Shown here: piece after piece, positions 3,348-49,668 of the stretch
How positions within the stretch are numbered: position 1 is the first letter of the stretch
Layout: every line of letters begins with the position of its first letter
Assembly (NCBI GenBank): GCA_963980225.1
Contig: CAXBYW010000002.1
Location: 39,502 to 103,501 of the forward strand
From: an uncultured bacterium
Lineage (GTDB): Bacteria > Patescibacteriota > Microgenomatia > UBA1400 > MFAQ01
Direction of reading: 5' to 3'
Length of the DNA: 64,000 nt
The notes under the pieces: generated by a model
Told to the model about the DNA's origin: nothing
Database searches by the model: none
What the model saw: the letters and a program-made list of their open reading frames with translations, nothing else
Made by a program: the position numbers and the translations under genes

Positions 3348-3824
3348 ATGACTGGTATGAAGAAGTATTGGTGGATTTTACTTGTGATTTTGGTGGTGTC
3401 TTTCTTGGTGGTTGGCTGGTCTTATTATATGAAGAAGAATAAATGGAAAACAGATGAGGGGTTGGTAAGGAGGATTCAGAACTTAACACCAGGGGAGATG
3501 TGGGTAAGGGTGCGTGAGTGGAATGACAAAGACCTGATACTTTCTTTCTGGGATGAGGTTAGTGGTGATACGGGTGAAATGAGAATAGACTTTCAAAAAA
3601 CTGTGGTTGTGGTGGGGGTGGTAGATAATGAGCGTGGTGAAATCCGCCAGGAACTATTGGTGAGTATGGCATCTCCATATTGGGAAAAAGCTTTTTGTCC
3701 AGAAGATTTTGTGACTTTTGAACTTAAGGGTTCTACTTATGTTTCAAAGAAGAGTGTTGCAGAGTTTACTAGTGAAGACGTAGAGAAAATTACAAACTTT
3801 GGCCCATCTAGATGCAGAAATTAA
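3348..3824 (+). CDS. hypothetical membrane-anchored protein
   Basis: Single N-terminal TM helix (WWILLVILVVSFLVVGW). Overlaps start of the downstream cysteine-rich gene by 13 nt, suggesting co-transcription. Confidence 0.4.
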   Translation: MTGMKKYWWILLVILVVSFLVVGWSYYMKKNKWKTDEGLVRRIQNLTPGEMWVRVREWNDKDLILSFWDEVSGDTGEMRIDFQKTVVVVGVVDNERGEIRQELLVSMASPYWEKAFCPEDFVTFELKGSTYVSKKSVAEFTSEDVEKITNFGPSRCRN

Positions 3825-6103
3825 AATTTATTATTGTCATTTTGGTGGTTGGTGTTCTTGGAAGCCTGATACGTCCCACTCCAGTGGAAGGGGCATTTCC
3901 TTGTGAAGACGTAGGTTATCAGTGTGGTGTGAATTCCCCCAATTGTTGGGATGAGTATTGTTCTTCTAGTTGTGGTGATGGTTGTTCCTTTGATTCTTGT
4001 TCTGGGGGGACGTGTAATTCATATTGTGACTGGAATAATTGCCCCGATGGTTGTAGATATCCGACAACTTCAGGTGGGGTGTGTAATGAGTGTACGGCGT
4101 ATTGTGATTCTAGTTGTGCTTATGGTTGTTCTTCTGAGTCTTGCTCTGGGGGTACATGCAACACACCTTCTTCTTGTGATGATTATTGCTGGAGTGGTTG
4201 TGCTTATGGTTGTTCTTCTGAAGACTGTGATGGTGGAGTGTGTAATTCGTCACCCACACCCACATCCACACCTACACCTACAAATGCTCCTGAGATTTGT
4301 AGTATCGACGAACTTACTTGTATTGATGGATATGAATATATATGTAGTGCGGATAGGACAGACTGGGATTATTTGAGAGCTTGTGCTTACGGTTGTGATA
4401 CTGCTGCCGACGTATGTAGTGTTTCGTCGTATTGTGAGGATGTGAGTTGTGGTGATTGTACTGCGGGTGGTGAGACTGGTTATAGGGTCATGTGTTGGTC
4501 TGATGAGACTCAAGAAGAGTTTCTTTGGGAGTCTTGCATAGCTTTTGATTCTGGCTATACACAGGATCAGTGTGAAACTCGTTTGGCGTCTAATGACCCT
4601 TGTCATGCTGTGAATGATACTTGTGGAGGACTGGCTTCTTGTGTGTTACCTTTGGTTTCACGTATAGATAGTTGTGGTTGGCAGGCGTGTGGTGTTGCTT
4701 GTGAACCACCACCAGTTGATGGAGGTGGTGATCCGGTCTGTGTTGCTAGTTATCCAGTGAAGGCGGTGTTGAGCTTGCCCGTTAGTGGAGGATCTACTGA
4801 TACTTTGAGTGTGAATCTTTCCTGGAGTCCGTCTACCGATTATGGGAATGGTTGTCCACAGAATAACGGTCAGACGGTGTTCTTGGAAGCGGGAGATAGT
4901 AGTCCGGATATTTGGGTGGCTTCTTTGTTTGCTAATGAAGGTTCGTATACAGCAAGTGGATTAGAGGGGAATAAGCAGTATTACTGGAGGGTGATGTCTA
5001 GTAATGGGTCTTTAGACATGTATTCGGATGTATATTCATTTATTACTCCAGGTATAGTTACGGGAACTTTATTTGATGCCTCTGATATTGACAGTTGTGC
5101 TTTAATGGGATCGGCACCAAAAATTTCTGGGTCTCTAGTTAATATTGTGGGAGGGGTAAGTTATGCACCAGTGACGGATGTCTTGGGTGTGTACTCACAG
5201 ATAGTGGGAGCACCAGATAGTTATGTGGTGACGCCGGTGGTGAGTGATCCATACAGTTCTACTCCTAAATTAACTTGCCAGGGAGCATCAGCTGATTTTG
5301 TGGTGGGTGGTCCGGAGACGGTAACCTTAGACTTTGGTTTTTGGAGGATTTATGGTGGTTGGTGGCAGGCCATTGGAGGGGATGTTTATGGTGGTGGGGG
5401 AATAGAGAGTGTTGTTCCGGTCGATGTGCCTGCAAATGAGAGATACTTAATTAAAAATGATGCTAACGGTAATGGAGGACTAGCGCAGTATGGTACTGGA
5501 GGAGTAATTGAGTTGGGTGATGGTGACGGAGTATACGTAAGTGAGAGTGGTTGGGAGGCAGAGAGTGGTTATGGTGGTCAGGATGTTAACTACGAGTACT
5601 ACACGGCCAAGATGAAGGTGTTGGAGAAGACGGTCTGGAGTGGTGTTGGTAAGCCAGTCTACAGTCCTGGTGTTGATGGATATGAGATTTATACATACAC
5701 AGGTGATGCAACGGTTAACTTTGATGTAAGTGGTGGGGAGAGAATGGTGTTTATGATTGACGGAAACGTAACGGTAAGTAGTGATGTGACGGTGGCTTTG
5801 GGGAGTCATTTAACGGTTATCTCTTCTGGAAATATTACCTTTGACAGTAACGTGGGAGAAGTACATGGATGGTGGGTAGCAGACAGGATAGTGATTGAGT
5901 CGACTGGGGACACGGCCACGGAGTTGCAGTTTAAAGGGGAAGGTAGTTTTGTTGGGTGGGATGCTGTCGAGCTTAATAGAGACAGAGGGGTGACTAACAA
6001 TACGGAGCCAGCCGAGGAGTTTACTTACAGGTCTGATTTGATGGTGAATGCTCCAAGAGCACTAAAGTTTTCTAGATACAAGTGGTTGGAGCAAGCGCCG
6101 TAG
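3812..6103 (+). CDS. large cysteine-rich repeat surface protein with PT linker, FN3-like and parallel beta-helix-like C-terminal region
   Basis: Signal/TM at N-terminus. About 300 aa with very high Cys content in repeated CxxxCxYGCSSExCxGGxCN units. PTPTSTPTPT linker. W...YYWRV FN3-like segment. C-terminal GNVTVSSDVTVALGSHLTVISSGNITFDSNVG beta-helix-like repeats. Confidence 0.6.
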   Translation: MQKLKFIIVILVVGVLGSLIRPTPVEGAFPCEDVGYQCGVNSPNCWDEYCSSSCGDGCSFDSCSGGTCNSYCDWNNCPDGCRYPTTSGGVCNECTAYCDSSCAYGCSSESCSGGTCNTPSSCDDYCWSGCAYGCSSEDCDGGVCNSSPTPTSTPTPTNAPEICSIDELTCIDGYEYICSADRTDWDYLRACAYGCDTAADVCSVSSYCEDVSCGDCTAGGETGYRVMCWSDETQEEFLWESCIAFDSGYTQDQCETRLASNDPCHAVNDTCGGLASCVLPLVSRIDSCGWQACGVACEPPPVDGGGDPVCVASYPVKAVLSLPVSGGSTDTLSVNLSWSPSTDYGNGCPQNNGQTVFLEAGDSSPDIWVASLFANEGSYTASGLEGNKQYYWRVMSSNGSLDMYSDVYSFITPGIVTGTLFDASDIDSCALMGSAPKISGSLVNIVGGVSYAPVTDVLGVYSQIVGAPDSYVVTPVVSDPYSSTPKLTCQGASADFVVGGPETVTLDFGFWRIYGGWWQAIGGDVYGGGGIESVVPVDVPANERYLIKNDANGNGGLAQYGTGGVIELGDGDGVYVSESGWEAESGYGGQDVNYEYYTAKMKVLEKTVWSGVGKPVYSPGVDGYEIYTYTGDATVNFDVSGGERMVFMIDGNVTVSSDVTVALGSHLTVISSGNITFDSNVGEVHGWWVADRIVIESTGDTATELQFKGEGSFVGWDAVELNRDRGVTNNTEPAEEFTYRSDLMVNAPRALKFSRYKWLEQAP

Positions 6104-7517: not shown

Positions 7518-7736
7518 TTGTGTGGTAGAATACTAAAAGTTATGAGAAGAAGAAAATTTGGTTGTGCAACATGCGGTAAAGGAGTTCAGTACGCTCAGAA
7601 TGTGAGTCACGCCAAGAATAGATCCAAGAAAATCAGACGACCTAACTTACACACACATAAGATATTGGTGAATGGGATTAAGACAAAACTAAAACTTTGT
7701 ACTAAGTGTAAGAGAGCTGCCAGGAAAGAAAAATGA
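7518..7736 (+). CDS. rpmB: 50S ribosomal protein L28 (true start probably the internal Met at 7542)
   Basis: CGKGVQYAQNVSHAKNRSKKIRRPNLHTHK matches the L28 GNxVSHAxNxTKRxxxPNL pattern. Small basic protein. Confidence 0.7.
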   Translation: MCGRILKVMRRRKFGCATCGKGVQYAQNVSHAKNRSKKIRRPNLHTHKILVNGIKTKLKLCTKCKRAARKEK

Positions 7737-8389
7737 GTCGCCCGGAAGGGATTGAGTTGTGGAATGATGCGGTTTCAATAAAAGAGAATTGGGGAGGGAC
7801 GAGAGATCCATTTGAACGGGTAAGGCAGCTGTGGACTGGAGACGAAAGGTTGAGTTGGGGTTCAGGAATAAATAGAGCCAATGCAATCTTGATTAGTAAT
7901 GAGAAGAAGGGCATAGAAGCAAAGTTGAATTTGGATGATTGGGAGGGAATACATCTTAAGTATGATAAAAAAGGGGAGTTGGCAAGTATTGACATACGCT
8001 CTATGGCATTTTTGTATTTGACCGGAAACAAAAGGATGATACAGGTGGCAGATGGTTTAGATGAACTACACCGAGACACCTTAATATCGATCGATCTTGT
8101 AAGTAAAAAACTGTTTGTTGGTATAGAAGATGAAGGAGAGGACGTATTTACTGATATAGATGAAGAAATAGCGGAAGGAAGGGGTATGTTTTGGGTATTG
8201 GTTTTACCTGATGATCTTAGTCTTGGTATCAGTTTGAAAATCGAAAAAAAAGAGGTGGTGATGATGTTTGAGAACGTAATGGTGGACATAAACCGTCATG
8301 TGGATTTAAGAACAGTTAGAAGTATTAGAGATATAGGAACGGCCAATGATCTTTTGCTTAATAATCTGTTGAAGGTTTGGGAAGTTTGA
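7733..8389 (+). CDS. hypothetical protein
   Basis: ORF with ATGA overlap to rpmB. No motif recognised. Confidence 0.4.
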   Translation: MSRPEGIELWNDAVSIKENWGGTRDPFERVRQLWTGDERLSWGSGINRANAILISNEKKGIEAKLNLDDWEGIHLKYDKKGELASIDIRSMAFLYLTGNKRMIQVADGLDELHRDTLISIDLVSKKLFVGIEDEGEDVFTDIDEEIAEGRGMFWVLVLPDDLSLGISLKIEKKEVVMMFENVMVDINRHVDLRTVRSIRDIGTANDLLLNNLLKVWEV

Positions 8390-12840: not shown

Positions 12841-13413
12841 ATGAAGAAGTTGGCTTGGGTGGTATCTAGGCTTTTTGACCCGGTAATCGAGATTCCGATG
12901 ATCCTTTCGGTGGCGGTCTGGTGGGCATTGACCAATGGATTGAGATGGCGTTTTTTGATATTTCTTTTGATAGTGGATGCTTTGCTTCCAGCTTTGTACA
13001 TGTTCTATGGTTTGAAGAAAGGTTTTATTTCTGACTGGGATATAACAAAAAAGAAGGAGAGAAGAAGTTTGTATATTGTTACTTCCTTGACTCACTTAGT
13101 GGGAGTGGTTTATGCATTTTTCTTGGGTAAGACAGAGCTGGCCTCGATTTTGTTGGTATTTTGGAGTTTGGCAGTGGTATTTGCGGTAGTGACTTATTTC
13201 TGGAAGATTTCGGTTCACGCTGGAGTCAATGGCGTCATGTTGGCCTTTTTTAACCATTTCTGGGGCTGGGAAAGCTACTGGTGGTTGACGTTGGTTTTAC
13301 TGTTGGTTTTGTGGTCTAGGGTGGAGATTAAGAAACATAGTTGGTTACAGGTGATGGTGGGAGCAGGTTTGGCGGTTGCCTGGGTGGAGATGGGTTTAAA
13401 TTGGCTGCTTTAG
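12841..13413 (+). CDS. PAP2-superfamily-like membrane phosphatase (possible undecaprenyl-diphosphatase type)
   Basis: Polytopic membrane protein. ISVHAG (PSGH-like) and SRVEIKKH (SRxxxxxH) motifs. Confidence 0.4.
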   Translation: MKKLAWVVSRLFDPVIEIPMILSVAVWWALTNGLRWRFLIFLLIVDALLPALYMFYGLKKGFISDWDITKKKERRSLYIVTSLTHLVGVVYAFFLGKTELASILLVFWSLAVVFAVVTYFWKISVHAGVNGVMLAFFNHFWGWESYWWLTLVLLLVLWSRVEIKKHSWLQVMVGAGLAVAWVEMGLNWLL

Positions 13414-18406: not shown

Positions 18407-19201
18407 TCAGACAGAGATTGGAGCCTTTATGTGTGGATGAGCCTGGTAATCGACTAGTTGAAAGTCTTCGAAAATGAAACGGTCGATGTTTTTGACCTCG
18501 GGAGCGATGAGCATTTTGGGCAATAGGTAGGGGTTTCTTGATAATTGCTCCCTGGCTTGGTTGAAGTGATTGCTGTAAAGGTGAGTATCTCCTAGACTCA
18601 AGATTAAGTCTCCTGGTTCAAGATCAGTGACCTGAGCGACCATCATGGTTAACAAGGCGTAGGAAGCGATGTTAAACGGTAAGCCTAAGAAGACATCTAC
18701 TGACCGTTGAGTCATAAGACAAGAGAGCTTGCCTTCCGCTACATAAAACTGGAACATTAAGTGACATGGAGGCAAGGCCATGTCTTTTAGACTAGAGACG
18801 TTCCAGGCATTGACGATCATGCGAGTGGAGCTTGGCTCGGTCTTGATCAAATGTATAGCGTCGCGAAGTTGGTCATAGGTTTCACCGTGTGGACCTAGCC
18901 AGTTACGCCATTGGCTACCATAGGTAGGACCTAGCTCACCTTGTTCATCTGCCCATTCATTCCATATCCTGACATTGTGCTGGTTTAAGTAGTTGATGTT
19001 GGTGCTGCCTTGGATGAACCAAAGTAGTTCATAAATGACTGATTTTAGATGGACTTTTTTGGTGGTGATCAAGGGAAACCCTTTTTGTAGGTTGAAGCGC
19101 ATCTGATGCCCGAAGATGGAACGTCTACCTGTTCCAGTACGGTCTGGTCTGTCGACTCCGTCCTTTAAGATTTTGTCAATCAATTCTAGATACTGTTTCA
19201 T
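18407..19201 (-). CDS. thyA: thymidylate synthase
   Basis: [15 protein letters not shown]...DRTGTG...RSIFG N-terminus and active-site Cys region ([11 protein letters not shown]). Confidence 0.95.
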
Positions 19202-20690: not shown

Positions 20691-20767
20691 AATAGAGAAG
20701 TTAATAAAACGCATCTTTGGGGAGTTTCCTTATAAAGGTCCCAGAGAGAGGTAATAAGGAAACTAAT

Positions 20768-21568
20768 ATGGCAACTAAAAAGATAGAAAAAGAAGTTAAA
20801 AAGACCGTAAAGTCAACAAAAAAAATTGTAAAGACCGTAAAAAAAGAGGTCAAGGAAGAAGTAAAAGTTTTGAAGGGAAGTAAAGAGGAGATGGTAAAGA
20901 TCCTTTTTGAGGCAGGAGCCCACTTTGGTCATGTAGCTAGGCGCTGGAATCCTAAGATGGACAAGTTTTTGCATGGCAAAAGAGGAGGAGTACATATATT
21001 TGACTTAGAAAAGACTGTAGACGCTATAGAGGCGGCTAGTGAAGCCTTGACTAAGTGGATGAGCGAGGGTAAGACTATCGCCTTAGTAGGAACAAAGAGA
21101 CAGGCAAAAGAGATCGTTAGAAGTGAGGCTGATAGAGTTAAACTACCTTTCGTGGTAGAGAGATGGCTTGGAGGCACGATTACTAACTGGCAACAGATGA
21201 AGACTAGGATTGATAGATTGAAGAAACTAAAGGAAGAGAGAGATAGTGGTGCCTTAAAGAGTTTTACTAAGAAAGAGAGACTGTTGATAGATAGGGAGAT
21301 TGCTAAGCTGGAGAGACAGTTTGGAGGCTTGGCTGACTTAAACTCAGCACCTAATATAATCTTGGTGGTTGATATCCGTAAGGAAAGAACGGCTATTAAA
21401 GAGGCTAAGATAAGAGGGACAAAAGTTGTAGCTTTGGTAGACTCTAATACTGACCCTGAACCAATAGACTATCCGATTCCTATGAATGATGATGCTACAG
21501 CGGCTGTGGAGCTGGTAGTTAGAAAACTAGTTGGAGCAATTGAACTAGGATTAAAGAAAAAGAAGTAA
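20768..21568 (+). CDS. rpsB: 30S ribosomal protein S2 with Lys-rich N-terminal extension (start at MATKK with AGGAA RBS; ORF begins 20717)
   Basis: MVKILFEAGAHFGH..RRWNPKM S2 signature. Confidence 0.9.
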   Translation: MATKKIEKEVKKTVKSTKKIVKTVKKEVKEEVKVLKGSKEEMVKILFEAGAHFGHVARRWNPKMDKFLHGKRGGVHIFDLEKTVDAIEAASEALTKWMSEGKTIALVGTKRQAKEIVRSEADRVKLPFVVERWLGGTITNWQQMKTRIDRLKKLKEERDSGALKSFTKKERLLIDREIAKLERQFGGLADLNSAPNIILVVDIRKERTAIKEAKIRGTKVVALVDSNTDPEPIDYPIPMNDDATAAVELVVRKLVGAIELGLKKKK

Positions 21569-21574
21569 AAGACT

Positions 21575-22024
21575 ATGATGGATAAGATCAAGAAATTACG
21601 AGACAAGACTGGTGCCGGAGTAATGGGAGTTAAGAAAGCCTTGGAAGAGGCTAAAGGGGATATGAAAAAGGCAGAGGCGATAATAAGAAAGAAAGGGCTA
21701 GCTAAGGCTACCAAAAAGTCTGATAGGGAAGTAAAGAGTGGGTTGATTCATTCTTACATTCACCAGACTGGCGGCGTAGGAGCCATGGTGGAGATAGCTT
21801 GTGAGACCGATTTTGTGGCTAAAAACGAGGAGTTTGTTAATCTTTGTAAAGAAGTAGCCATGCAGGTTGCGAGCATGAATCCAAAAGACGTTAAAGAGTT
21901 AGAGAAGCAGGCCTACATTAGAGACTCTAGTAAGAAAGTAGGAGATCTGGTGAAGGAGTTGGTGGGGAAGATTGGAGAGAACATGAGAATAGTTCGTTTT
22001 GTTCGCTTTGAACTGGGCGAGTAA
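21575..22024 (+). CDS. tsf: elongation factor Ts (short 149-aa form)
   Basis: IKKLRDKTGAGVMGVKKALEEAKGD UBA-like N-terminus. Immediately after rpsB. Confidence 0.85.
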   Translation: MMDKIKKLRDKTGAGVMGVKKALEEAKGDMKKAEAIIRKKGLAKATKKSDREVKSGLIHSYIHQTGGVGAMVEIACETDFVAKNEEFVNLCKEVAMQVASMNPKDVKELEKQAYIRDSSKKVGDLVKELVGKIGENMRIVRFVRFELGE

Positions 22025-22039
22025 TGATAGAATTAGTTT

Positions 22040-22645
22040 ATGGAAGATGAAAATGTTCCCTTTATAGATAGTGTAAAAAGACAGAATAAAGCCAGGGAGT
22101 TAGTGAAAAGAAAATATAAGTCGAAGGAAGATGGTAGTTTTGGTTTGCTTAAAGACTACGATAATGATCCAAGCTTAGCTGAAGAGGTTGAGGTTAAGAA
22201 GCCCTGGAAAATCTATGTAGTGTGTTTGGCTGGGGAAAATAGAAGTCGCCTGATTGCAGGTGTTTTGGAAGATGAAGATGTGGGAGAAAAAAAGAAACTT
22301 AATTATTTAGCCGGTTATGGTGGGACTAATTTTTCGTTTCCGGTAATGGAAAAAGAAATAGATGAGTTTGGTCCAGACGCAATTATTTTTGCTACCAGGA
22401 CGACCAGAAAAACTTTTGAAGAGAAGTTTCCAAGAATAGCTGAAAAGATGAAGGAGAAAAAGATTCTGGGGAGAAGTATTGGCCTAAGCGACAGTAGGGT
22501 GTCCTTGACCTTAGATAAAGGAGATGAAAAAATTGGTAAACTAAAGGATAAGATAAGAGGAAGATTGTTGGAAATGGGTTTTCAGGGGTTGACCACAGAA
22601 GATTTAGAAAAAAAATGGGCAGACGTTATTAAAAAAGGAAAGTAA
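22040..22645 (+). CDS. hypothetical protein with CX5R(S) P-loop resembling low-molecular-weight phosphotyrosine phosphatase / ArsC-type phosphatases
   Basis: VVCLAGENRSRL fits the C-x5-R-S phosphatase P-loop. Occupies the slot between tsf and frr where pyrH normally lies. No UMP-kinase motifs. Confidence 0.3.
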   Translation: MEDENVPFIDSVKRQNKARELVKRKYKSKEDGSFGLLKDYDNDPSLAEEVEVKKPWKIYVVCLAGENRSRLIAGVLEDEDVGEKKKLNYLAGYGGTNFSFPVMEKEIDEFGPDAIIFATRTTRKTFEEKFPRIAEKMKEKKILGRSIGLSDSRVSLTLDKGDEKIGKLKDKIRGRLLEMGFQGLTTEDLEKKWADVIKKGK

Positions 22646-23205
22646 TGGATCAAGAGATAATGAAGCTACTAAAAGAGAAGTTGGATAAAGTTCTAGAGAT
22701 AGTAAAAGGTGACATGGATACGGTGCGAACAGGGAAGGCTAAGCCAGACATGGTAGGAAATATCATGGTTAATGCTTATGGTGGTCAGAAGATGAGATTG
22801 CAGGAGCTAGCGAGTATTTCGGCACCAGATCACTCCTTGATCATTATCGAACCTTGGGACAAGAGTGTGGTCCAGGATATAGAAAAGGCAATTGTGGCCA
22901 GTGAACTACAGTTGTCTCCAGCCGTGAGTGAGGGTCTGATCAGACTGCCGGTCCCACCGCTAACCGAAGAGAGAAGACAGGATTTTGTGAAACTATTGGC
23001 TCAGAAAATCGAGAGTGGTAAGGTAATGCTTAGGCAGGCCAGGGGAGATGTCAAAGAGAGAATAGATAGCCTGGAAGGCGAGTCTGGTGTGAGTGAGGAT
23101 GATATAAAGAGAATGTTGGAGGAGATGCAGAAAATATTTGAGAAGTATCAAGAAAGACTGGACGAGATGAGTAAGATTAAGGAGCTTGAGATCATGGAAA
23201 TTTAA
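22645..23205 (+). CDS. frr: ribosome recycling factor
   Basis: DMDTVRTGKAKPDMVGNIMVNAYG RRF signature. 186 aa. Confidence 0.9.
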   Translation: MDQEIMKLLKEKLDKVLEIVKGDMDTVRTGKAKPDMVGNIMVNAYGGQKMRLQELASISAPDHSLIIIEPWDKSVVQDIEKAIVASELQLSPAVSEGLIRLPVPPLTEERRQDFVKLLAQKIESGKVMLRQARGDVKERIDSLEGESGVSEDDIKRMLEEMQKIFEKYQERLDEMSKIKELEIMEI

Positions 23206-24868
23206 GATGGAGATAAGAAAGATAATAGAACAGGCAATCGGGAAGGCGATTAAGACTCTCGATGTTTCGTCTTTGGGAAAAGTTGGAGTAGAACATCCAG
23301 CAGATGAATTAATGGGGGATTACTCTAGTAACGTAGCCTTGAAAACGGGTGTTAAGGCCAAGGTAATAAAGGAGAAGTTGGAGAAAGATAAGGATTTGAT
23401 GAAGGTAGTAGAGAAAGTTGAGATTGCCGGTCCTGGGTTTATAAACTTCTGGTTAAAGAAGGAATGGTTGGTAGCTGAGATGCTTAAGGTAGTTAAACAA
23501 AATAAAGATTACGGTAAGGGAAGTTGGGGTAAGGATAAGCGGATGGTGATTGATTACTCTGCGCCTAATATTGCCAAGCAGTTTAGTGTGGGCCACTTGC
23601 GATCCACCATTATTGGCCAGGCGATATATAACTTACATAAGTTTTCCGGTTGGAAGTGTGTTGGAGATAATCACTTGGGTGATTGGGGCACACAGTTTGG
23701 GATGATAGTGGCGGCGGTAGAAAAGTGGGACTTAGACTTATCAAAGATGAGTGTTAACGAGATAGAGGAAATTTATGTAAAATACAACAAATTGGTAAAG
23801 GAAGATGAGAAGTATCTAAAGAAAGCGCAAGAAGCCTTTGCAAGATTAGAGAAAGGGGAGCCAAAGGCAAAAAAGGTTTGGCAGACGGCTATCAAGATGA
23901 GTTTGAAGGATTTTGACAAGGTATATGATTTACTTGGAGTAAAGATAGATGAGGCGTACGGGGAGAGTTTCTATCAAGACGAGATGGAAAAGGTGATTAA
24001 AGAGATGAAGAAAAAGAAGGTTGCTGTCAAAGGAGAGGGTGGAGCTTTGATTGTGGAACTAGACGGTTTACCACCAGCAATGCTTGTCAAAAGCGATGGA
24101 TCGAGTACATATTTTACCCGAGATATGGCTACGGTAAAGTGGCGAAGAGAAAACCCGAATATGGCCTCAGATTTGTATATTTATGAGGTAGGTGCTGAAC
24201 AGAGTTTGCATTTTAAACAGGTATTTGCTGCGGCCGAAAAGACTGGTTGGGGCAAGAAAGAAGATTTTGTTCATGTTGCTCACGGACTGGTATTGGGGAC
24301 GGATGGTAAGAAGATGAGTACTAGAAAAGGCACCACTGAAAGTATGGAAGAGCTTTTGAAGAAGATGATTAATAAGGCGGCGGAGATAAATGAGACGTCA
24401 GCTAGACAAGTAGGTGTAGGAGCCACTATTTTTAATGATCTTAAACATTCACCTCAGACAAGCTACAAGTTTGACTGGGAGAAAGCCTTGTCGATGGAGG
24501 GTGATTCCGGCCCGTATGTGCAGTACAGCGCAGTAAGAGCGTTAAGTGTCTTGAAAAAATCTATGCCTCGTACAGGTGGGAAAGACTTGAAACTTGATAT
24601 GGCTAGTTTGAGTGAGGGAGAGTTAGAGGTGTTGAGGAAGTTGTACAGGTTTGGAGAAGTGGTAGAGAGAGCTACTAGAGAACTTTCACCCAACTTACTT
24701 TGTGAGTACTTACTTGATTTATCTAGAAGCTTTAATGGTTTTTACGGTAATAATCAGGTAATTGGTGGTGAAAACGAGGATTTTAGATTAGGATTGACCG
24801 CGGCTGTAGCCCAGATTTTGAAGACTGGATTGGGACTGCTTAACATAGAGGTGCCAGAAAAGATGTAG
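23186..24868 (+). CDS. argS: arginyl-tRNA synthetase
   Basis: SAPNIAKQFSVGHLRS (HIGH-class motif). C-terminal DALR-type anticodon-binding domain. Confidence 0.9.
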   Translation: MRSWKFKMEIRKIIEQAIGKAIKTLDVSSLGKVGVEHPADELMGDYSSNVALKTGVKAKVIKEKLEKDKDLMKVVEKVEIAGPGFINFWLKKEWLVAEMLKVVKQNKDYGKGSWGKDKRMVIDYSAPNIAKQFSVGHLRSTIIGQAIYNLHKFSGWKCVGDNHLGDWGTQFGMIVAAVEKWDLDLSKMSVNEIEEIYVKYNKLVKEDEKYLKKAQEAFARLEKGEPKAKKVWQTAIKMSLKDFDKVYDLLGVKIDEAYGESFYQDEMEKVIKEMKKKKVAVKGEGGALIVELDGLPPAMLVKSDGSSTYFTRDMATVKWRRENPNMASDLYIYEVGAEQSLHFKQVFAAAEKTGWGKKEDFVHVAHGLVLGTDGKKMSTRKGTTESMEELLKKMINKAAEINETSARQVGVGATIFNDLKHSPQTSYKFDWEKALSMEGDSGPYVQYSAVRALSVLKKSMPRTGGKDLKLDMASLSEGELEVLRKLYRFGEVVERATRELSPNLLCEYLLDLSRSFNGFYGNNQVIGGENEDFRLGLTAAVAQILKTGLGLLNIEVPEKM

Positions 24869-24888: not shown

Positions 24889-25929
24889 ATGCAGGTTCTG
24901 ATATTTTTACTTACCCTATCTTTATTGATCTTGATTCACGAGCTGGGTCATTTTTTTGCTGCCAAGGCTTTTGGTATGGAAGTGGAAGAGTTTGGGATAG
25001 GCTTCCCTCCTAGGGTGAAGAAGCTTTTTCGTTGGAAAGGAACCTTGTTTTCCTTGAATTTGCTACCCATTGGAGGTTTTGTGAGTATCAAGGGAGAGAA
25101 CTTTGGACACAGAGAAAAGGCAAGTGATGATATGTTTTGGGATAGGCCAATATGGCAGAGAGCGGTTGTTTTACTTTCAGGTGTGTTTGGCAACTTTGTT
25201 TTAGGAGTGGTTCTTTTTGGGATAGTTTACTCTGTAATGGGAGTGCCGACACAGGTAGGTAAGGTCAAGGTGGTGGGAGTGTCGGAGGGAAGCCCGGCGG
25301 CAAAGGTAGGTATAAAAGAGGGAGAGATCATAAAGGGATTTACCAAGACAGAGGATGTAATATCTTTGATAGGAGAACATAAAGGTGAAGAGATAGTTTT
25401 GGTACTTGAAGGAGAGACAGAAGACAGGGAAGTAAAGGTAGTGCCTCGAGTGAGCCCACCAGAAGGCGAAGGTTCACTAGGTGTATTACTGTCTGACACC
25501 GAGCTAGTTAAGCTGCCTTGGTGGCAGATGCCTTTTAAGGGAGCTGTAGTAGGTACAAAAGAAGCCTACGCTTGGGGTAAGGAGATAGTTAAGGGGTTGG
25601 GAGGTATGTTGTCAGGATTAGTGAGTGGTGAAGGAGTGCCGGAAGATGTGTCTGGACCGGTAGGAATCTACAAGGTGTCTGCACGAGTGAACGAGATGGG
25701 TTGGCTAGCTAGTTTACAGTTTATGGCCATTTTATCTATGAATTTAGCTGTCTTAAACATATTGCCGATACCAGCATTGGATGGTGGAAGACTGGTGTTT
25801 TTAGGGCTTGAGATGGTGATTGGTAAAAAGATAAAAAACAGGATAGAAGGTTGGGTCCATGGGGTGGGAATGATATTCCTTTTGGGGTTGATGGTGCTTA
25901 TTACCATTAGGGATATAATAAAGTTATGA
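24889..25929 (+). CDS. rseP: RIP zinc metalloprotease RseP-like (M50 with PDZ)
   Basis: LIHELGHFFAAK HExxH in TM1. Central PDZ-like segment. C-terminal LPIPALDGG motif. Confidence 0.8.
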   Translation: MQVLIFLLTLSLLILIHELGHFFAAKAFGMEVEEFGIGFPPRVKKLFRWKGTLFSLNLLPIGGFVSIKGENFGHREKASDDMFWDRPIWQRAVVLLSGVFGNFVLGVVLFGIVYSVMGVPTQVGKVKVVGVSEGSPAAKVGIKEGEIIKGFTKTEDVISLIGEHKGEEIVLVLEGETEDREVKVVPRVSPPEGEGSLGVLLSDTELVKLPWWQMPFKGAVVGTKEAYAWGKEIVKGLGGMLSGLVSGEGVPEDVSGPVGIYKVSARVNEMGWLASLQFMAILSMNLAVLNILPIPALDGGRLVFLGLEMVIGKKIKNRIEGWVHGVGMIFLLGLMVLITIRDIIKL

Positions 25930-27384: not shown

Positions 27385-27996
27385 TTGACGAGATATGGTA
27401 TAGTAATTTTTATGGTATTGCCAAAAGAAAGAAGAAACCCAATAGTAAGAGAGATACAAGAAGAGCATGAAATAGCAGGGCTTAATAAGGCTTTTGTGGA
27501 GGCTCAGAAGTATTTAACCGATCTTGTACTGGAAGACTTAAACGTATCTGAGCCGTATAGAAGTAGTGTAATGAAAACGGAAAAAGAGTTAGTAATTGCT
27601 TTAGGTTCAGATGATAACTCGGATTTGAAAATTTTCTTTTTTGTTTTTAACCACGCAGATGGAAAAGGAGTTTTGCAGATTTGTACTAATGAGGGAGATG
27701 CAACGTTGTCTTCCAGGTTTGTGAAGATGAAAGAGGTGGCGGGTGGAGATGATGTTATCTTGGCGGAGGTAATAGATGATTATGAAGAGTTGGACGGTCA
27801 TGTGTTTGAGGTTGATATAGCAAGTCTGACGTCTCAAGGTGACGGTGTAACCCTCTCTTTGAGAGATGAAAATTTTGGTTGGACCGTGGCGTGGAACAAA
27901 AATAGAAAAGATGAAGAAGAAAGAAACGTAGGGTTTAAAAGAAACTTTGTGCAAGATGTGGCTTTGGTAAAAAAAAGCGAAGAAGAAAAATCATAA
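27385..27996 (+). CDS. hypothetical protein
   Basis: ORF only. Acidic, no motif recognised. Confidence 0.35.
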   Translation: MTRYGIVIFMVLPKERRNPIVREIQEEHEIAGLNKAFVEAQKYLTDLVLEDLNVSEPYRSSVMKTEKELVIALGSDDNSDLKIFFFVFNHADGKGVLQICTNEGDATLSSRFVKMKEVAGGDDVILAEVIDDYEELDGHVFEVDIASLTSQGDGVTLSLRDENFGWTVAWNKNRKDEEERNVGFKRNFVQDVALVKKSEEEKS

Positions 27997-29882: not shown

Positions 29883-30488
29883 ATGAAAAGTATTAGACCA
29901 ATACAAAAGGTGATTGATGCGTTTGAGAGTTTACCTGGCATTGGACCAAAGTCTGCAGCTAGATTGGCTTACTATTTACTACATGTTCCACAAGAGAGAC
30001 TGGAAAAGTTTGGTGAAGGCTTGAGTCGTTTAAAAAAAGACACAAAAAGGTGTGAGATTTGCTTTAATATTGGCGAGGATAGCTTATGTCCGGTGTGTAA
30101 AGACAATGGGAGGGACAAGAAAATAGTCTGTGTGGTAGAAACACCACTGGACTTACTGGCTTTTGAGAGAGCTGATGGCTTTAATGGGGTTTATCATGTT
30201 TTGGGAGGGGCTATCAATCCATTAGGAGGAGTAGGACCAGAAGAGTTGACGATAGATGAGCTTTTGGGAAGAATAAAAAAGGGAGGGGTAGAGGAGCTTA
30301 TTTTGGCCACCAACCCAACTATGGAGGGTGAGGCTACTGCAATGTATATCACTCATAAGATAAAAGAAGGTAAAGCAAAGGACTTGAAGATAACTAGAAT
30401 AGGTAGGGGGCTGCCAACTGGAGCAGATGTGGAGTATGCCGACGGGCAGACCTTAAGTAGGGCTTTAGAAGGAAGGAGAGAGGTATGA
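29883..30488 (+). CDS. recR: recombination protein RecR
   Basis: SLPGIGPKSAARLAYYLL HhH. C4 zinc finger (CEICFNIGEDSLCPVC). Toprim domain. Confidence 0.9.
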   Translation: MKSIRPIQKVIDAFESLPGIGPKSAARLAYYLLHVPQERLEKFGEGLSRLKKDTKRCEICFNIGEDSLCPVCKDNGRDKKIVCVVETPLDLLAFERADGFNGVYHVLGGAINPLGGVGPEELTIDELLGRIKKGGVEELILATNPTMEGEATAMYITHKIKEGKAKDLKITRIGRGLPTGADVEYADGQTLSRALEGRREV

Positions 30489-30928
30489 ATTCTGCTGGAA
30501 TAGGAAAGAAAGTTCTGGGAGAGTTGGGAGATGTGGTAAAGAAGACAGCGGAAGATACTGTTAAAGCAGGAACTGATATTGTAAAAGGCACGGTTGAGAC
30601 AGTGGTTGGTGGAACTACACCCGTAACACAATCTGGTGAGAGACTAGTGGAGCAGGAAGGATCGAGCCAGAGTGACCCCGCGGAGACGCTAAAACGACAA
30701 GGAATGGTTAAAAAACAAAGAGGTCTACAAAGAGTGCGGGCAGAGTTAGCAGGATATGTAAGAGAGAAGCAACAAAAGGATACTCAAAAGGATAGGGTAG
30801 AAGAGAGACAAGGAGAGATCAAAAAAGAGCAAGAAAAAGAGATAAAGGAGAGTGAGAGAGACGCAATGATTAGGCAGGCCCAGAGGAGCGGTGGAGGTAC
30901 GGGTGAGATGTCTAGAAAGAAATACTAG
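30485..30928 (+). CDS. hypothetical low-complexity K/E/Q-rich protein
   Basis: ORF only, start overlaps recR stop. Confidence 0.3.
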   Translation: MNSAGIGKKVLGELGDVVKKTAEDTVKAGTDIVKGTVETVVGGTTPVTQSGERLVEQEGSSQSDPAETLKRQGMVKKQRGLQRVRAELAGYVREKQQKDTQKDRVEERQGEIKKEQEKEIKESERDAMIRQAQRSGGGTGEMSRKKY

Positions 30929-30958
30929 AATTATGGGACTTGAGTGGTAAGATAAGAC

Positions 30959-31393
30959 ATGCCAGAAATTCCAACATTAACTCCTAAAAACATAGAAGAT
31001 GAGGTTGCCTCTCAGGTAATAAGTGCTTGGAGAGATCAGTTGAAAGAGGAGTTGGGAAGAGATGAGTTTCGCAAGTTAATAAGACAGATATCGGCAAGTG
31101 GGGTGGTTTTTCAGGTTCAAGATGATGGTGTGGTGAATTTTTATGTTTTGGATGAGGTTGATGAAGAGACGTTGTTGGGCATGCGAGGTAAAGGTTGGTT
31201 GGTATATAAAGGGATAGACAATACTGGCAATATCTCGATGTCCGGAGACATATACGCCACTAGTCCAGATGACGTAGATGTACAAAAAAAGAAAGGGTAT
31301 AGTAAGAAATATAGACATGGTAAACACAGACAAGATGTAAGTGCGCGAAACAAACGAACTGTGCAAGCCATGAACAATAGAGGTAAAAAGTAG
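30959..31393 (+). CDS. hypothetical protein with basic C-terminal tail
   Basis: ORF only. Confidence 0.3.
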   Translation: MPEIPTLTPKNIEDEVASQVISAWRDQLKEELGRDEFRKLIRQISASGVVFQVQDDGVVNFYVLDEVDEETLLGMRGKGWLVYKGIDNTGNISMSGDIYATSPDDVDVQKKKGYSKKYRHGKHRQDVSARNKRTVQAMNNRGKK

Positions 31394-32826: not shown

Positions 32827-33456
32827 TCAGCCTATCTTTGGAGGTAGAGGTTTTTGAGTGAGGAAGTTTTCGATAAACTGGGGGGTGATTTCGGCTGGAG
32901 TGTTTGAAAAAGACGTTGGGAAACATTCTATCCAGAGTTCAAGGTGTTGTTGGAGTTTTTCTTGTAGGTTTTTTTGGGCACCAGATAGGTTTTGAACCTG
33001 GGATCTTTCTTTTTTGTACTTAACGGTGAGTTGAGTAGGAAGGTGAGTTAGACGGATGGCTGTTGCAAGTTTGTTTATATTTTGTCCACCTGGGCCTTGT
33101 TTACTAGCAAACCTTTTTGTTTCAACATTTTTTTGCATCTCTTTTGTGATGTCTATCTGTCCTCGTATTACGTTTTCTTGTAGCCATTGAGCGTAATTTA
33201 GGATACTGAGCTGTCTTTGATGAGGATGTTTGAAGCTTTCGTTGGAAAAGTTAAGTTGTAGTTGTTTGTATAGGATGAGTTTAGCCTTGTAGTGTCTGAG
33301 CTTTTGTTGATGTTGGTCTGTTTTCTTATGGCTGGTAAGAGTAGATCTGCCTGGTTTCTTGTTACCGCCAGTTTTATTTCTTCCCGCTTCTTGGTCCAGT
33401 TTGTCCTCATAATCGTCGGCAATCTTGGCTAGAGATGGGGGAAGCTCGTCTTTCAT
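32827..33456 (-). CDS. truncated class-I release-factor paralog (GGQ domain only)
   Basis: GPGGQNINKLATAIRLTHLPTQLTV...ERSQVQN is near-identical in pattern to the RF1 GGQ domain at 39756-40649. Lacks the codon-recognition (PxT/SPF) domain and the C-terminal RTYNFPQ segment. N-terminal 100 aa are low-complexity. Confidence 0.5.
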   Translation of the reverse strand: MKDELPPSLAKIADDYEDKLDQEAGRNKTGGNKKPGRSTLTSHKKTDQHQQKLRHYKAKLILYKQLQLNFSNESFKHPHQRQLSILNYAQWLQENVIRGQIDITKEMQKNVETKRFASKQGPGGQNINKLATAIRLTHLPTQLTVKYKKERSQVQNLSGAQKNLQEKLQQHLELWIECFPTSFSNTPAEITPQFIENFLTQKPLPPKIG

Positions 33457-33513: not shown

Positions 33514-34170
33514 ATGAGTAAAGGGGGATGGATTGTAGTTGGTTTTATAGCTTTGAATCTGATTATCTTGAATGTATGGGTATTTGGAAACTTAGGCAAG
33601 ACGGATGCTGTTTTGGGAGATAGTGTAGAGAAGGTAATAGAAAAAGAGATTGTAGAAGTTAAGGGTGAAGATGATGGATGTGATCAGGAGTGCGTAATGG
33701 CAATAGTAGAAGAAAAAATAGATGAGTTAGTGAGTAAGTACGGTTTAGTGATAAAAAAAGAGACAAAGACGGTGTCTAAGACGGTAAGTACGATTAAACC
33801 AACAAGTGAGAAGTTTGTGAGAATAAGCGGGGGTGATGGTCAGGGAGCTGGTTGGATACGATTAGGAAGTAGTGTGTTTTGGTTGGATGCAGGCTTGTAT
33901 GGAGAGCTGGTGGAGGCTAGTTGGCAGGGTTGGTTGGAAACTTCTGGTGGGAGCTTGGATGGTTGGGTAAGGCTTTATGATGCAAGTAATGGTCGGGTGG
34001 TGGATGGAAGTGAGGTTCGAATAACAACTGATTTGTCTAAAACGAGTTTTTATTCAAGTAATATTGCCATCTGGCGAGGTCAGAACCAGTACTATATAGA
34101 AGTAAAGGATTTTGGAGGAGGAGATAGATTAACTGTGTCTGAACCTAGATTAAGGTTGGTGGTTAGGTAG
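33514..34170 (+). CDS. hypothetical membrane-anchored/secreted protein
   Basis: N-terminal TM. Beta-rich C-terminal region. No motif. Confidence 0.35.
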   Translation: MSKGGWIVVGFIALNLIILNVWVFGNLGKTDAVLGDSVEKVIEKEIVEVKGEDDGCDQECVMAIVEEKIDELVSKYGLVIKKETKTVSKTVSTIKPTSEKFVRISGGDGQGAGWIRLGSSVFWLDAGLYGELVEASWQGWLETSGGSLDGWVRLYDASNGRVVDGSEVRITTDLSKTSFYSSNIAIWRGQNQYYIEVKDFGGGDRLTVSEPRLRLVVR

Positions 34171-38638: not shown

Positions 38639-39766
38639 ATGAAGAATTTCTTGATAGGACTAATGGTTTCGGTGATTGTACTTTTTTCTGCATTTGGAGG
38701 AGCCTTAGCAGACAGACTGTTTGTTATTAAGCCTTTGGATAAAATTTTTAAAAGAAGTGAGGTTGTGGTGGAAGAAAAGGTAAAAATACTAAGTGAGGAT
38801 GGTGGAGTAGTTGAAGTGGTAGAGAGAGTAAGTCCAGCGGTAGTGACGGTAGCGGTCATAGGCCAGACCCAAGGAAGAATAGTATTTGATGCTTTTGAGT
38901 TTTTTGGATTTAGACAAGAAGAACCGGAGATCGTACAACAAGATATTGGTTCTGGGTTTGTAGTCGATGGCCAAGAAGGGGTGGTGGTAACTAACAAGCA
39001 TGTAGTAGCTAGAGATGGAGTGAAGTATGTGGTGATTGATAAAGAAGGAGAGGAGTATGAGGTCAAGGATTTGTATAGGGACCCAGTGAATGACTTAGCG
39101 ATACTAAAGATTGAGGCTGAAAAGAGTTTGGAGGCAATTACGCTGGGTGATTCTGACCTTTTAAAGGTGGGCCAGAGAGTAATAGCTATTGGTACAGCTT
39201 TGGGAGAGTTTAGACACACAGTGACTACAGGGGTGATTTCTGGTTTGGGTAGGGGAATAAGTGCGGGTAATGGTTCCTTAGGGAGTCTTGAGAAAATTGA
39301 TGATGTCATCCAGACAGATGCCGCTATTAACCCTGGAAATTCTGGAGGACCTTTGCTTGATATAAATGGTCGGGTAATAGGAGTAAATGTAGCTGTGGCT
39401 GGTGGGGGAGAAAATATTGGTTTTGCTATTCCAATTAATGTAGTTAGGGAATCACTTGATAACTTTAAGGAGACAGGAAGCTTTGATAGGGTACAGTTGG
39501 GGGTGAAGTACAGGATGATAGATAAAGATGTGGCTTTACTGAATGATGTGCCTGCAGGAGCTTACATTGTGGAGGTGATGGAGGATTCAGTAGCAGCAAA
39601 AAATGGAGTTTTGGTAGGAGATATCATTATCAAACTTGAAAATGAAGGAGTAGTTGAAGTAGATGGTGGCCTGGCTGGTTTAATAGGTAAGTTGAAGGTG
39701 GGAGAAAATATTAAGATTGAATTATGGAGAAATGGTCAAATTTTGGTCCTAAATATTAAGCTTTAA
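38639..39766 (+). CDS. htrA: HtrA/DegP-family trypsin-like serine protease with PDZ domain
   Basis: N-terminal TM. TNKHVV (His), DLAILK (Asp), GNSGGPLLDINGRVIGVN (Ser) catalytic triad motifs. C-terminal PDZ. Confidence 0.85.
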   Translation: MKNFLIGLMVSVIVLFSAFGGALADRLFVIKPLDKIFKRSEVVVEEKVKILSEDGGVVEVVERVSPAVVTVAVIGQTQGRIVFDAFEFFGFRQEEPEIVQQDIGSGFVVDGQEGVVVTNKHVVARDGVKYVVIDKEGEEYEVKDLYRDPVNDLAILKIEAEKSLEAITLGDSDLLKVGQRVIAIGTALGEFRHTVTTGVISGLGRGISAGNGSLGSLEKIDDVIQTDAAINPGNSGGPLLDINGRVIGVNVAVAGGGENIGFAIPINVVRESLDNFKETGSFDRVQLGVKYRMIDKDVALLNDVPAGAYIVEVMEDSVAAKNGVLVGDIIIKLENEGVVEVDGGLAGLIGKLKVGENIKIELWRNGQILVLNIKL

Positions 39767-40649
39767 GGACTTTTTCTAGTTGACCTTCCATGACTTCTTT
39801 TAGGTTGTGCCAGCTTTTGTTTAGCCTGTGGTCGGTGAGTCTATTCTGGGGAAAGTTGTAGGTTTTTATCTTTTCTGATCTCATACCTCTACCTACGGCT
39901 TCTGATCTGGTGGCTTCGATTTCTTTTAGCTTTTCTTCTTCTTGCTGTTGCCAGAGTTTTGATCGCAGCATGTCTAAGGCTATTTCTTTGTTTTGAACTT
40001 GAGACCTTTCTTGACGAACAGATACAGTCATCTGGGTAGGTTTGTGGGTAAGACGAACAGCAGTGTTGACCTTGTTTACATTTTGTCCACCTGGTCCACC
40101 GGCTGTAGTGAAAGCCCATTCTAAGTCTGATAACTTGAGTTGGACTAAGTCCTTTTTAATTTCTGGTAAAACGGTTACTGTGGCAGTAGAGGTGTGGATT
40201 CTACCTTGTGACTCTGTGGCGGGGACTCTTTGGACTCTATGGACCCCAGCTTCATTTTTGAAGGTTTCAAAGCAACCTAGGGGCCAGTCAGAGCTGTTGG
40301 CTTTTTTGAGCTTGATTGTACTAGTGTCGATTTCTTCTATTTTGAAGTTATGGTTATTAGCAAATCTTACATACATTCGTAGTAGGTCTTGCGCAAAGAT
40401 TTTGGCTTCATCACCACCAGCAGCAGCTCTTATCTCTATGACGACTGGGGCATTTTTGGGAACTTGTGAAACTTTTTCTTTCTGTTTTTCTACCTGTTGG
40501 CCAGCTTTTTCTAGTTGTTTTATCTGATCTTGAAGTTTTTTGATTTCTTCTTTGGCTAGGGGACCGAGTTCAGGATCATTTACCAGGTCCTGGTGAGATT
40601 TGACTTTGTTTTGGAGGCGATCTATTTCTGGTTTAAGAGAGTTGTTCAT
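39756..40649 (-). CDS. prfA: peptide chain release factor 1 (N-terminally short, 297 aa)
   Basis: RVPATE (PxT tripeptide anticodon motif, RF1-type). GGQ ([12 protein letters not shown]). C-terminal [14 protein letters not shown]. Confidence 0.85.
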
Positions 40650-41166: not shown

Positions 41167-41239
41167 GCGGGATTAGCTTAGTTGGCAGAGCACTTTCCTG
41201 CTCGGGAAGAGGTCACAGGTTCGAGTCCTGTATCCTGCT
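41167..41239 (+). tRNA. tRNA-like element 1 (class I cloverleaf; anticodon loop CUGCUCG lacks purine-37; identity unclear)
   Basis: 7-bp acceptor GCGGGAT/ATCCTGC. D-arm TAGCTTAGTTGGCAGAGC. Canonical T-arm ACAGG-TTCGAGT-CCTGT. Anticodon stem CTTTC/GGAAG with loop CTGCTCG (anticodon would be GCU, but the short variable arm is incompatible with tRNA-Ser). Confidence 0.5.
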
Positions 41240-41577
41240 TTTTAAAGGAGGCATAATCTCCTTTAAAAAATGATATAGGTAAGTGTCTAAGGTTTGATTT
41301 GAGATGAGTCAGATTTTGGCCTCCAACTTACCTAACCCTGATCTTGTCGTCTGAGGATAGATGTAGATACTGTCAATAGACAGTAATTTGCAGATGGGAT
41401 GTCCCACCGAAGACGACAAAACAACCAACAAGGAATGAAAACATATAACGCCGTAGTTTTCACTCCTTGATCGATCAAGGAAGTTCCTCGGTAGGATGAA
41501 ACCTTGTTGGTTGTTAAAAACTTATCCGTGTAGGATTAAGACTCGATTCTGAGTTTTGAGCTTACACGGTTTTTTTT
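41240..41577 (+). ncRNA. structured noncoding RNA co-transcribed downstream of tRNA-like element 1, ending in intrinsic terminator (41526-41577)
   Basis: No ORF. Nested stems (ggtaagt/acttacc; ttgtcgtct/agacgacaa; aaccaacaagg/ccttgttggtt; tccttgatc/gatcaagga). Terminator ccgtgtag...cttacacgg plus T8. Confidence 0.45.
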
Positions 41578-41597
41578 ATGGCAAGAAAGTAAACATA

Positions 41598-41626
41598 TTG
41601 ACAGAGATAAAAGCTTGTAGTATATT
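41598..41626 (+). promoter_or_regulatory. sigma70-type promoter of tRNA-like/ncRNA unit 2
   Basis: TTGACA (41598-41603), 17-nt spacer, TATATT (41621-41626). Same CTTGTAGTATATTGAT block as unit 1. Confidence 0.6.
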
Positions 41627-41769
41627 GATCAAACTGACAGATGTCAGTTATAGGAGGAGATCGGTACCTCCCGAATTTGGTGGAAGAGTCACCGTAAACT
41701 TCTAAGTTGGATAACTATCCATGGAAGGTTATCCAACCGCACTTATTGCACATTTTTATTTTTTTAAAC

Positions 41770-41848
41770 GCGGGCTTAGCTCAGCTGGTAGAGCATTCCG
41801 GACATCACTGAAAGGAAAAGGTCACAGGTTCGAATCCTGTAGTCCGCT
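41770..41848 (+). tRNA. tRNA-like element 2 with enlarged, non-canonical anticodon arm (23 nt instead of 17)
   Basis: Acceptor GCGGGCT/AGTCCGC. D-arm TAGCTCAGCTGGTAGAGC. T-arm ACAGG-TTCGAAT-CCTGT. Region between D and variable arms is ttccggacatcactgaaaggaaa, which cannot form a 5-bp stem plus 7-nt loop. Confidence 0.4.
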
Positions 41849-49305: not shown

Positions 49306-49431
49306 GAGGTTGTGGACTGGTTTTTTTAAAGAATTAGGAACGAGATAGCTGATTTTTAGCTAAAGATATGATACTATCGGTCTTAGTACATTGATAAATT
49401 TAATAAAATATATTTTTAAAGGAGATTTGGA

Positions 49432-49620
49432 ATGGAAAAAGGTAGGAAACTCATGTCTTATACCGTTGAGGAAGAAAGTGTGAATGATTTAACTAGTGAA
49501 TTTAATAATTTTTTTAAGAGATTAGAGGGTAGAAATCCCGAGGTGAAGGGCTTCAGTGTAAGTCATGGTGATGGGCCAAGATTGGTACAGGCAGTGATTG
49601 TCGAAGTAGACGAACCTTAA
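49432..49620 (+). CDS. hypothetical small protein (62 aa)
   Basis: ORF with AAAGGAG RBS and upstream TTGATA..TATATT promoter-like sequence. Confidence 0.25.
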   Translation: MEKGRKLMSYTVEEESVNDLTSEFNNFFKRLEGRNPEVKGFSVSHGDGPRLVQAVIVEVDEP

Positions 49621-49668
49621 ACCTTATTTTTATTTAATTTTTTTAACATTGATTTAGGAGGACTAAAA

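Follow-up and report, generated by a model that had tools for sequence, protein, structure and literature searches.

In an uncultured bacterium of the Patescibacteria, the gene lying between tsf and frr (open reading frame (ORF) X, 201 aa) probably encodes a cysteine-dependent phosphohydrolase of the low-molecular-weight protein tyrosine phosphatase (LMW-PTP) superfamily, whose fold is that of LMW-PTP, ArsC and Ssu72; in the same reading it represents a tiny family of Patescibacteria, is coupled to frr and does not derive from pyrH. The gene was found in a stretch of 64,000 nucleotides of contig CAXBYW010000002.1, hereafter the window. The order rpsB-tsf-pyrH-frr is a textbook gene string, in which PyrH, the uridine monophosphate (UMP) kinase, is the usual occupant of the tsf-frr interval. 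An initial annotation, made from the window alone, had noted that ORF X lacks UMP kinase motifs and carries the C-x5-R-(S/T) P-loop of LMW phosphatases or ArsC-type reductases, and had proposed that pyrH was displaced or lost or, alternatively, that ORF X is a highly divergent protein.

Members and conservation of the ORF X family

ORF X is a genuine gene with an ATG start, and the peptide VVCLAGENRSRL, which spans C62 to R68-S69, is found in its product. The pattern C-x5-R-[ST] has five matches among the six-frame ORFs of at least 60 aa in the window, the other four of which fall in short or antisense ORFs; taken alone, the bare pattern is weak evidence. Single-sequence and four-sequence profile searches of Pfam, NCBIfam and PDB returned nothing meaningful, and a word-indexed search yielded three homologues that are 60-63% identical to ORF X. 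When the profile of these homologues was run exhaustively with HMMER against 1.84 billion representative sequences, only eight proteins were obtained at E <= 1e-3, and a further profile search added one more (P0011), annotated as "hypothetical protein [Patescibacteria group bacterium]". In total, about 11 sequences are known among roughly 15 billion proteins, including a 108-aa fragment (P0004) that is 99% identical to the window protein. A scan of metagenome contigs with the family alignment found a single locus, which was already known, and the scan of genome contigs, which was run with frr, revealed no family member among GTDB representatives. The family is tiny and previously unannotated and, as far as the sources are known, restricted to Patescibacteria.

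Across the 11-sequence alignment, in which identity to the window protein ranges from 22 to 62%, ten columns are invariant (E49, C62, G65, R68, S69, L76, Y89, G95, F126, and R145) and eight are nearly so (P55, A64, N67, A73, P101, I115, L176, and G180). The most conserved feature is the motif V-C-x-A-G-x-N-R-S-(R/K), within which P-loop position +4 is variable (E, M, Q, K, or S). Column 151 holds Asp or Glu in nine of the ten sequences of alignment A2, and the tenth has an Asp one position earlier. In six of the 11 members, the window protein included, the P-loop cysteine is the only one, and no second cysteine column is conserved. The N-terminal extension contains the invariant E49 and the near-invariant P55 and is shorter in three members (P0006, P0007, and P0010); its length had been given as 55 aa, in agreement with a first core strand that starts at residue 57. 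The ORF X proteins share about 60% identity between genomes in which identity reaches 74-87% for RpsB, EF-Ts, RRF and ArgRS; ORF X evolves faster than its neighbours.

Predicted fold, relation to known phosphatases and proposed mechanism

At the sequence level, the family profile matched PDB entries below the significance threshold but in register, namely the LMW phosphatase-family ArsC 8p5n (E 0.068) and Ssu72 (E 0.39 and 1.1), along with a phosphotransferase system (PTS) IIB domain (E 0.69). A reference set of 18 diverse, authentic PF01451 proteins was aligned after retrieval with a YwlE query (best database match 92% identical), and hhalign related the ORF X family to this set with a probability of 76.5% and an E-value of 2.2e-5. 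In this alignment C62, R68 and S69 fall in register with C7, R13 and S14, the segment P-l-(t/m)-E-E is placed on P-L-T-x-E, and strand β3 (D-A-I-I-F-A-T) is placed on D-L-I-L-T-M-T (DxIIxxT). Against single sequences, the probabilities were 57% for Ssu72, 32% for bovine LMW-PTP, 12% for ChbB, 0.4% for Bacillus subtilis ArsC and 0.3% for PyrH; the low-confidence alignment to ArsC placed GLSDS on GFDDP. Invariant residues D115, D118, P119 and G121 of the YwlE set have no counterpart in the ORF X family.

Structure prediction with AlphaFold2 gave a mean predicted local distance difference test (pLDDT) score of 44 with the four-sequence alignment and of 85.7 with 11 sequences (predicted template modelling score 0.81; all five models 83-86), the usable model being attributable to the divergent members supplied by the exhaustive search. 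Its core runs β1 (57-62), P-loop, helix 67-77, β2 (90-95), helix 104-110, β3 (114-117), helix 120-138, β4 (143-146), and helix 163-178, preceded by three N-terminal helices and followed by a C-terminal helix (186-199). This order reproduces the LMW-PTP-superfamily topology of a helix-flanked, four-stranded parallel β-sheet (β1-α1-β2-α2-β3-α3-β4-α4), with the C-x5-R-(S/T) loop directly between strand 1 and the following helix, as is characteristic of the superfamily. In a structure comparison, the top 16 chains were all LMW-PTPs, ArsC arsenate reductases or Ssu72, with scores of 10.1 for 4egs, 9.8 for Wzb 7dhd, 9.3 for pI258 ArsC 1jf8 and 8.7 for Ssu72 3o2q, down to 7.3; identity over the structural alignments to LMW-PTP-type proteins was 14-20%. 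Foldseek agreed, its top matches being nearly all LMW-PTP, YwlE, Wzb or ArsC (best E 3.8e-4; target template-modelling score 0.5-0.58), and a viral structure library contained no match to the model. The phosphatase-type P-loop recognized in the initial annotation is thus invariant in the family, in register with PF01451 and set in a predicted LMW-PTP-like fold.

Among the known systems, the closest are the bacterial LMW-PTPs and YwlE (PF01451; Thermoanaerobacter tengcongensis 4egs, Vibrio vulnificus Wzb 7dhd, and B. subtilis YwlE 4etn), from which ORF X differs in lacking the D-P-(Y/F)-G acid loop and in carrying two additions, some 55 aa of conserved helical sequence at the N-terminus and one more helix at the C-terminus. 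Arginine phosphatases of the YwlE type are marked by a Thr at P-loop position +4 (C-T-G-N-T-C-R-S), and ORF X has neither this Thr nor the D-x-x-D-P-F-G acid loop. Ssu72, the eukaryotic phosphatase of the RNA polymerase II carboxy-terminal domain (CTD; PF04722; 3o2q/3o2s), carries an inserted cap subdomain, whereas nothing in the secondary structure of the ORF X model matches the cap and its extra residues form N-terminal helices; moreover, ORF X has no Pfam match to Ssu72 and is bacterial, belonging to the candidate phyla radiation (CPR), in which we know of no CTD-like substrate. The P-loop sequence C-x-A-G-x-x-R-S resembles that of dual-specificity phosphatases (DSPs; PF00782, HC-x-A-G-x-x-R-S), which accounts for the only recurrent weak Pfam match, to DSPc in two members (best E 0.011). 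The family accordingly combines a DSP-like P-loop sequence with a predicted LMW-PTP topology and a conserved, helical and lineage-specific N-terminal module.

Catalysis and the identity of the acidic residue we infer by analogy with the superfamily. Backbone amides of the C62-S69 loop would, together with Arg68, bind the substrate phosphate, and attack on it by the Cys62 thiolate, stabilized by Ser69, would give a phosphocysteine intermediate. The leaving group would be protonated by an acidic side chain, for which the likeliest candidate is Asp151, in the loop that follows strand 4, D159 and the invariant E49 being alternatives; water would then release the phosphate. The conserved N-terminal helices could serve as a docking module.

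Genomic context and alternative readings

For comparison of loci, one genome per GTDB species was scanned with the window RRF, and rpsB, tsf, pyrH, frr and ORF X were mapped on the fetched loci. The closest genome is a metagenome-assembled genome labelled "Patescibacteria group bacterium" (locus L011), with an RRF 80-81% identical to that of the window, and the other Patescibacteria share 33-41%, which assigns the window to a CPR bacterium. The order tsf-pyrH-frr was recovered in seven non-CPR loci (Actinobacteria, Spirochaetia, Clostridia, Nitriliruptorales, two Caldisericales, and Rhizobiaceae) and pyrH-frr in an eighth, partial one. In contrast, pyrH was found nowhere in the fetched DNA of any Patescibacteria locus, all of these loci having been fetched via frr. 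The genes tsf and frr are directly adjacent in L011 and in a Saccharibacteria locus (L019), a Woesebacteria locus (L021) has unrelated genes between them, and in other loci frr is preceded by holB and a gene of unassigned function; a tblastn search for remnants of ORF X in L011, L019 and L021 found none. Within the window, E. coli PyrH gave no tblastn match below E 0.1, and Pfam scans of about 50 ORFs detected tmk but no amino-acid kinase and no other nucleoside monophosphate kinase. A search of the literature on pyrH or UMP kinase in CPR/Patescibacteria and on LMW phosphatases in CPR found nothing relevant.

The loss of pyrH from the tsf-frr interval is therefore a general feature of the sampled Patescibacteria and not an effect of ORF X, since none of their loci has pyrH there, including the two in which tsf and frr are adjacent. 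The premise of a conserved pyrH slot holds for the seven non-CPR loci and for none of the fetched Patescibacteria loci, so the apparent oddity of a different gene at this position dissolves, and with it the proposal that ORF X displaced pyrH. On the preferred reading, ORF X did not arise from pyrH and does not stand in for it. Separately, the clade of the window has an insertion hot spot between tsf and frr: ORFs of 320 and 88 aa with no Pfam match on record follow ORF X in L005-L007 (L005 3733-4961; L007 909-2137), a 93-aa ORF follows it in L008-L010 (L008 4849-5130), L011 carries a 92-aa minus-strand ORF between tsf and frr (5681-5959) and no ORF X, and toxin-antitoxin-like genes (PemK, PIN) flank frr and argS in L005 and L009.

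As the initial annotation had suggested, the same locus was examined in related genomes. Each of the three close homologues (P0001-3) is located between tsf and frr, in some loci with one or two additional small ORFs preceding frr, and P0005, which is 40% identical to ORF X, shows the order tsf-X-frr as well. Because this order is kept in the P0005 locus even though its RRF and EF-Ts are only 45% and 57% identical to those of the window, the arrangement must be old. Half of the family lies elsewhere. P0006 (L038) directly follows an M50/RseP peptidase gene and precedes a CofD/YvcK-type gene, and is placed in the same ancestral supercluster because the M50 peptidase gene of the window sits two genes after frr. 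P0009 is downstream of rplU-rpmA and upstream of a Cas4-like nuclease gene, P0010 is upstream of a PGA_cap gene, and the distant members P0008 and P0011 stand alone near ychF and rpsF-ssb-rpsR. Also near P0008 and P0011, beside ychF and rpsF-ssb-rpsR, is a 200-aa protein with a match to PF22547 (2H-SAK) (L033 2792-3394 and L034 2725-3327, minus strand). ORF X is thus an accessory, patchily distributed gene that tends to ride in the rpsB-tsf-frr-rseP cluster without being tied to it.

Four other readings of ORF X can be weighed on this evidence. That it is a highly divergent or truncated PyrH in its ancestral slot, an outcome that the initial annotation had named as refuting its own reading, has in its favour that the interval houses pyrH in the seven non-CPR loci and that, by eye, CLAGE resembles the PyrH motif KLSGE and YGGTN the PyrH motif GGGN. 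The motif pairs were ruled out by the hhalign value for PyrH and by the fold searches, in which amino-acid-kinase structures were absent from both the Foldseek and the structure comparison lists. ORF X and PyrH (PF00696) have only genomic position in common, with no similarity of sequence, profile or fold, and pyrH adjoins frr only in non-CPR loci; we give this reading practically no credence. The ArsC-type half of the original assignment fares little better than that: a thioredoxin-coupled arsenate reductase (pI258/B. subtilis type), or another redox enzyme, could share the same P-loop and the superfamily fold, but the thioredoxin-coupled mechanism depends on two additional cysteines (Cys82 and Cys89 in pI258 ArsC), which the six single-cysteine members cannot supply. 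With no ars genes in any ORF X context and negligible profile similarity to B. subtilis ArsC, such an enzyme is very improbable; of the original assignment, the P-loop stands, and so, as a prediction, does the superfamily fold.

A phosphocarrier or phosphotransferase with the phosphocysteine chemistry of PTS EIIB (lactose/cellobiose type, PF02302) is even less probable. EIIB has a Cys loop without the catalytic Arg and associates with EIIA/EIIC, whereas the Arg-Ser pair, a phosphatase signature at this loop position, is invariant in the ORF X family, and LMW-PTP-type structures score clearly above IIB in the structure search. The extreme version of this reading, equally improbable, makes ORF X an in-situ, non-orthologous successor of pyrH, that is, a phosphocysteine-forming enzyme of LMW-PTP/EIIB fold acting on uridine nucleotides in a lineage that lost UMP kinase, either as a phosphotransferase or as a UMP/UDP-specific phosphatase tuning salvage. 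If it were true, retention of tsf-X-frr at an frr identity of 45% would reflect function rather than operon inertia. Against it, a family of about 11 members among 15 billion proteins is much too rare to substitute generally for PyrH in Patescibacteria, neither gene is present between tsf and frr in L011 and L019, and half of the members lie outside the slot. More weight, albeit still little, belongs to a catalytically inert, phosphatase-derived binding or regulatory protein, such as a translation-factor partner. Its embedding and apparent translational coupling in a translation-factor operon, an N-terminal extension that could serve docking, and a general-acid position that the alignments do not establish would all suit such a role, but pseudo-phosphatases usually lose the Cys or the Arg, and here Cys, Arg and Ser are retained in 11/11 sequences, including the most divergent, at 22% identity to ORF X.

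Several observations weigh against the preferred reading of ORF X as an LMW-PTP-superfamily phosphohydrolase. No family member reaches the Pfam thresholds for LMWPc, Ssu72, DSPc or PTS_IIB, NCBIfam yields nothing, and for LMWPc (PF01451) no member has a match even at E <= 1. The profile-profile probability is 76% and not above 95%, and the fold was predicted from no more than 11 sequences. The loop C-x-A-G-x-N-R-S departs from the LMW-PTP consensus C-x-G-N-x-C-R-S, and the alignment to the YwlE set is unreliable in the general-acid region, where the placement of GLSDS and Asp151 is not confirmed. No partner gene is conserved beside ORF X across its contexts, and no protein kinase occurs among the approximately 50 window ORFs scanned. 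Finally, ORF X is missing from L011, a relative no more distant from the window than the others, so the function of ORF X is dispensable or encoded elsewhere.

Since neither a kinase nor any other partner is conserved beside ORF X and no protein kinase was seen in the scanned window ORFs, the substrate class is a guess, in which we favour a phosphorylated protein side chain. By a similar guess, the operon context points loosely to translation factors; that ORF X serves specifically to dephosphorylate a translation factor of the same operon (EF-Tu, EF-Ts, or RRF) is rather doubtful, if somewhat less so than an inert protein.

Operon, remainder of the window and implications

The coordinates of ORF X, its parts and its neighbours are collected in Table 1. 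The gene order tmk-folD-rpsB-tsf-X-frr-argS-M50 peptidase-HIT is tightly packed, and no terminator-like site was found between tsf, ORF X and frr. From the stop-start overlap with frr and the lack of such a site, ORF X is judged to be part of a tightly packed housekeeping operon, apparently co-transcribed and translationally coupled with frr. The frr-argS-M50 stretch looks like a remnant of the classic rpsB-tsf-pyrH-frr...rseP string. In the same operon, the EF-Ts of the window is very short and matches the Pfam EF_TS model over positions 1-76 of 204 only; the same short form also occurs in relatives and in a Woesebacteria locus (153 aa), whereas the EF-Ts of a Saccharibacteria locus has 239 aa.

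Table 1. ORF X, its predicted elements and the genes of its operon in the window
Feature	Coordinates	Strand	Description
ORF X	22040..22645	+	201 aa; member of a very small unannotated family; LMW-PTP-like fold (predicted)
N-terminal extension, residues 1-56	22040..22207	+	Three predicted helices, 12-25, 29-34 and 44-53 (AlphaFold2); block pLDDT 81-94 at residues 11-60
β-strand 1, K57-C62, KIYVVC	22208..22225	+	AlphaFold2 strand 57-62; ends in putative nucleophile Cys62, invariant in 11/11
P-loop C62-L-A-G-E-N-R68-S69 (C-x5-R-S)	22223..22246	+	C62, G65, R68 and S69 invariant; A64 and N67 at least 90% conserved
Asp151 in GLSDS loop after β-strand 4	22490..22492	+	Candidate general acid
TAATG overlap	22643..22647	+	ORF X stop (TAA) and frr start (ATG); read from sequence
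rpsB	20717-21568	+	Pfam Ribosomal_S2, E 3.8e-76
tsf	21575-22024	+	Short, 149 aa; Pfam EF_TS, E 3.8e-21; immediately upstream of ORF X
frr	22645-23205	+	Pfam RRF, E 1.7e-51
argS	23186-24868	+	phmmer match to argS of relatives' loci, whose genes have the Pfam matches
M50/RseP-type peptidase	24889-25929	+	Pfam matches from syntenic genes in relatives' loci

Across the window (1-64000), the compositional asymmetry of the strands is extreme and strongest at 1-40000: in 2-kb bins, the plus-strand GC skew of the first 40 kb lies between +0.33 and +0.53. At third codon positions the skew is +0.32 to +0.67 in plus-strand terms for genes on both strands, which indicates a strand (replication or mutational) bias rather than a coding bias. 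The bulk skew drops to 0.0-0.3 beyond about 40 kb, the point at which minus-strand genes and tRNA genes (41167-41848) set in. The topA-tmk slot holds thyA in the window (18407-19201, minus strand) and in L006 (1687-2526; Pfam Thymidylat_synt). In its place, the close relative L001 has thyX (Thy1; 2125-2841), a gene not homologous to thyA, and L009 has only a 70-aa thyA fragment (1482-1694). The window thyA has an overall GC skew of 0.14, compared with 0.4-0.5 for its neighbours, which would fit a recent acquisition.

Two window proteins contain an RF-1 domain. One, of 209 aa, has the RF-1/GGQ domain only (32827-33456, minus strand; E 4.8e-16) and may be ArfB-like or a release factor that has been truncated; the other is a short release factor of 297 aa with PCRF and RF-1 domains (39756-40649, minus strand). 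Two large plus-strand ORFs of 579 and 763 aa (1553-3292 and 3812-6103) have no Pfam match at E <= 1e-5, and mid-sized ORFs without a Pfam match lie at 7733-8389, 12841-13413, 27385-27996, 30485-31393, 33514-34170, 44305-44946, 48820-50433 and 52854-53699. The low-skew part also encodes a tyrosine recombinase (57410-58354, plus strand; E 5e-42; Phage_integrase with a SAM-like N-terminal domain), which may represent XerC/D or mark the border of a mobile element.

For annotation, the outcome is that ORF X is not pyrH and that "LMW phosphatase-like protein" is a defensible name for this extremely rare family, which is new to the LMW-PTP/ArsC/Ssu72 superfamily. In none of the sampled Patescibacteria loci is the textbook rpsB-tsf-pyrH-frr string intact, which bears on UDP synthesis in these bacteria and on pyrH as a choice of marker gene. 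Because protein phosphorylation in CPR bacteria is, to our knowledge, poorly understood, a putative phosphatase in the rpsB-tsf-frr operon offers a concrete and cheap target for biochemistry.
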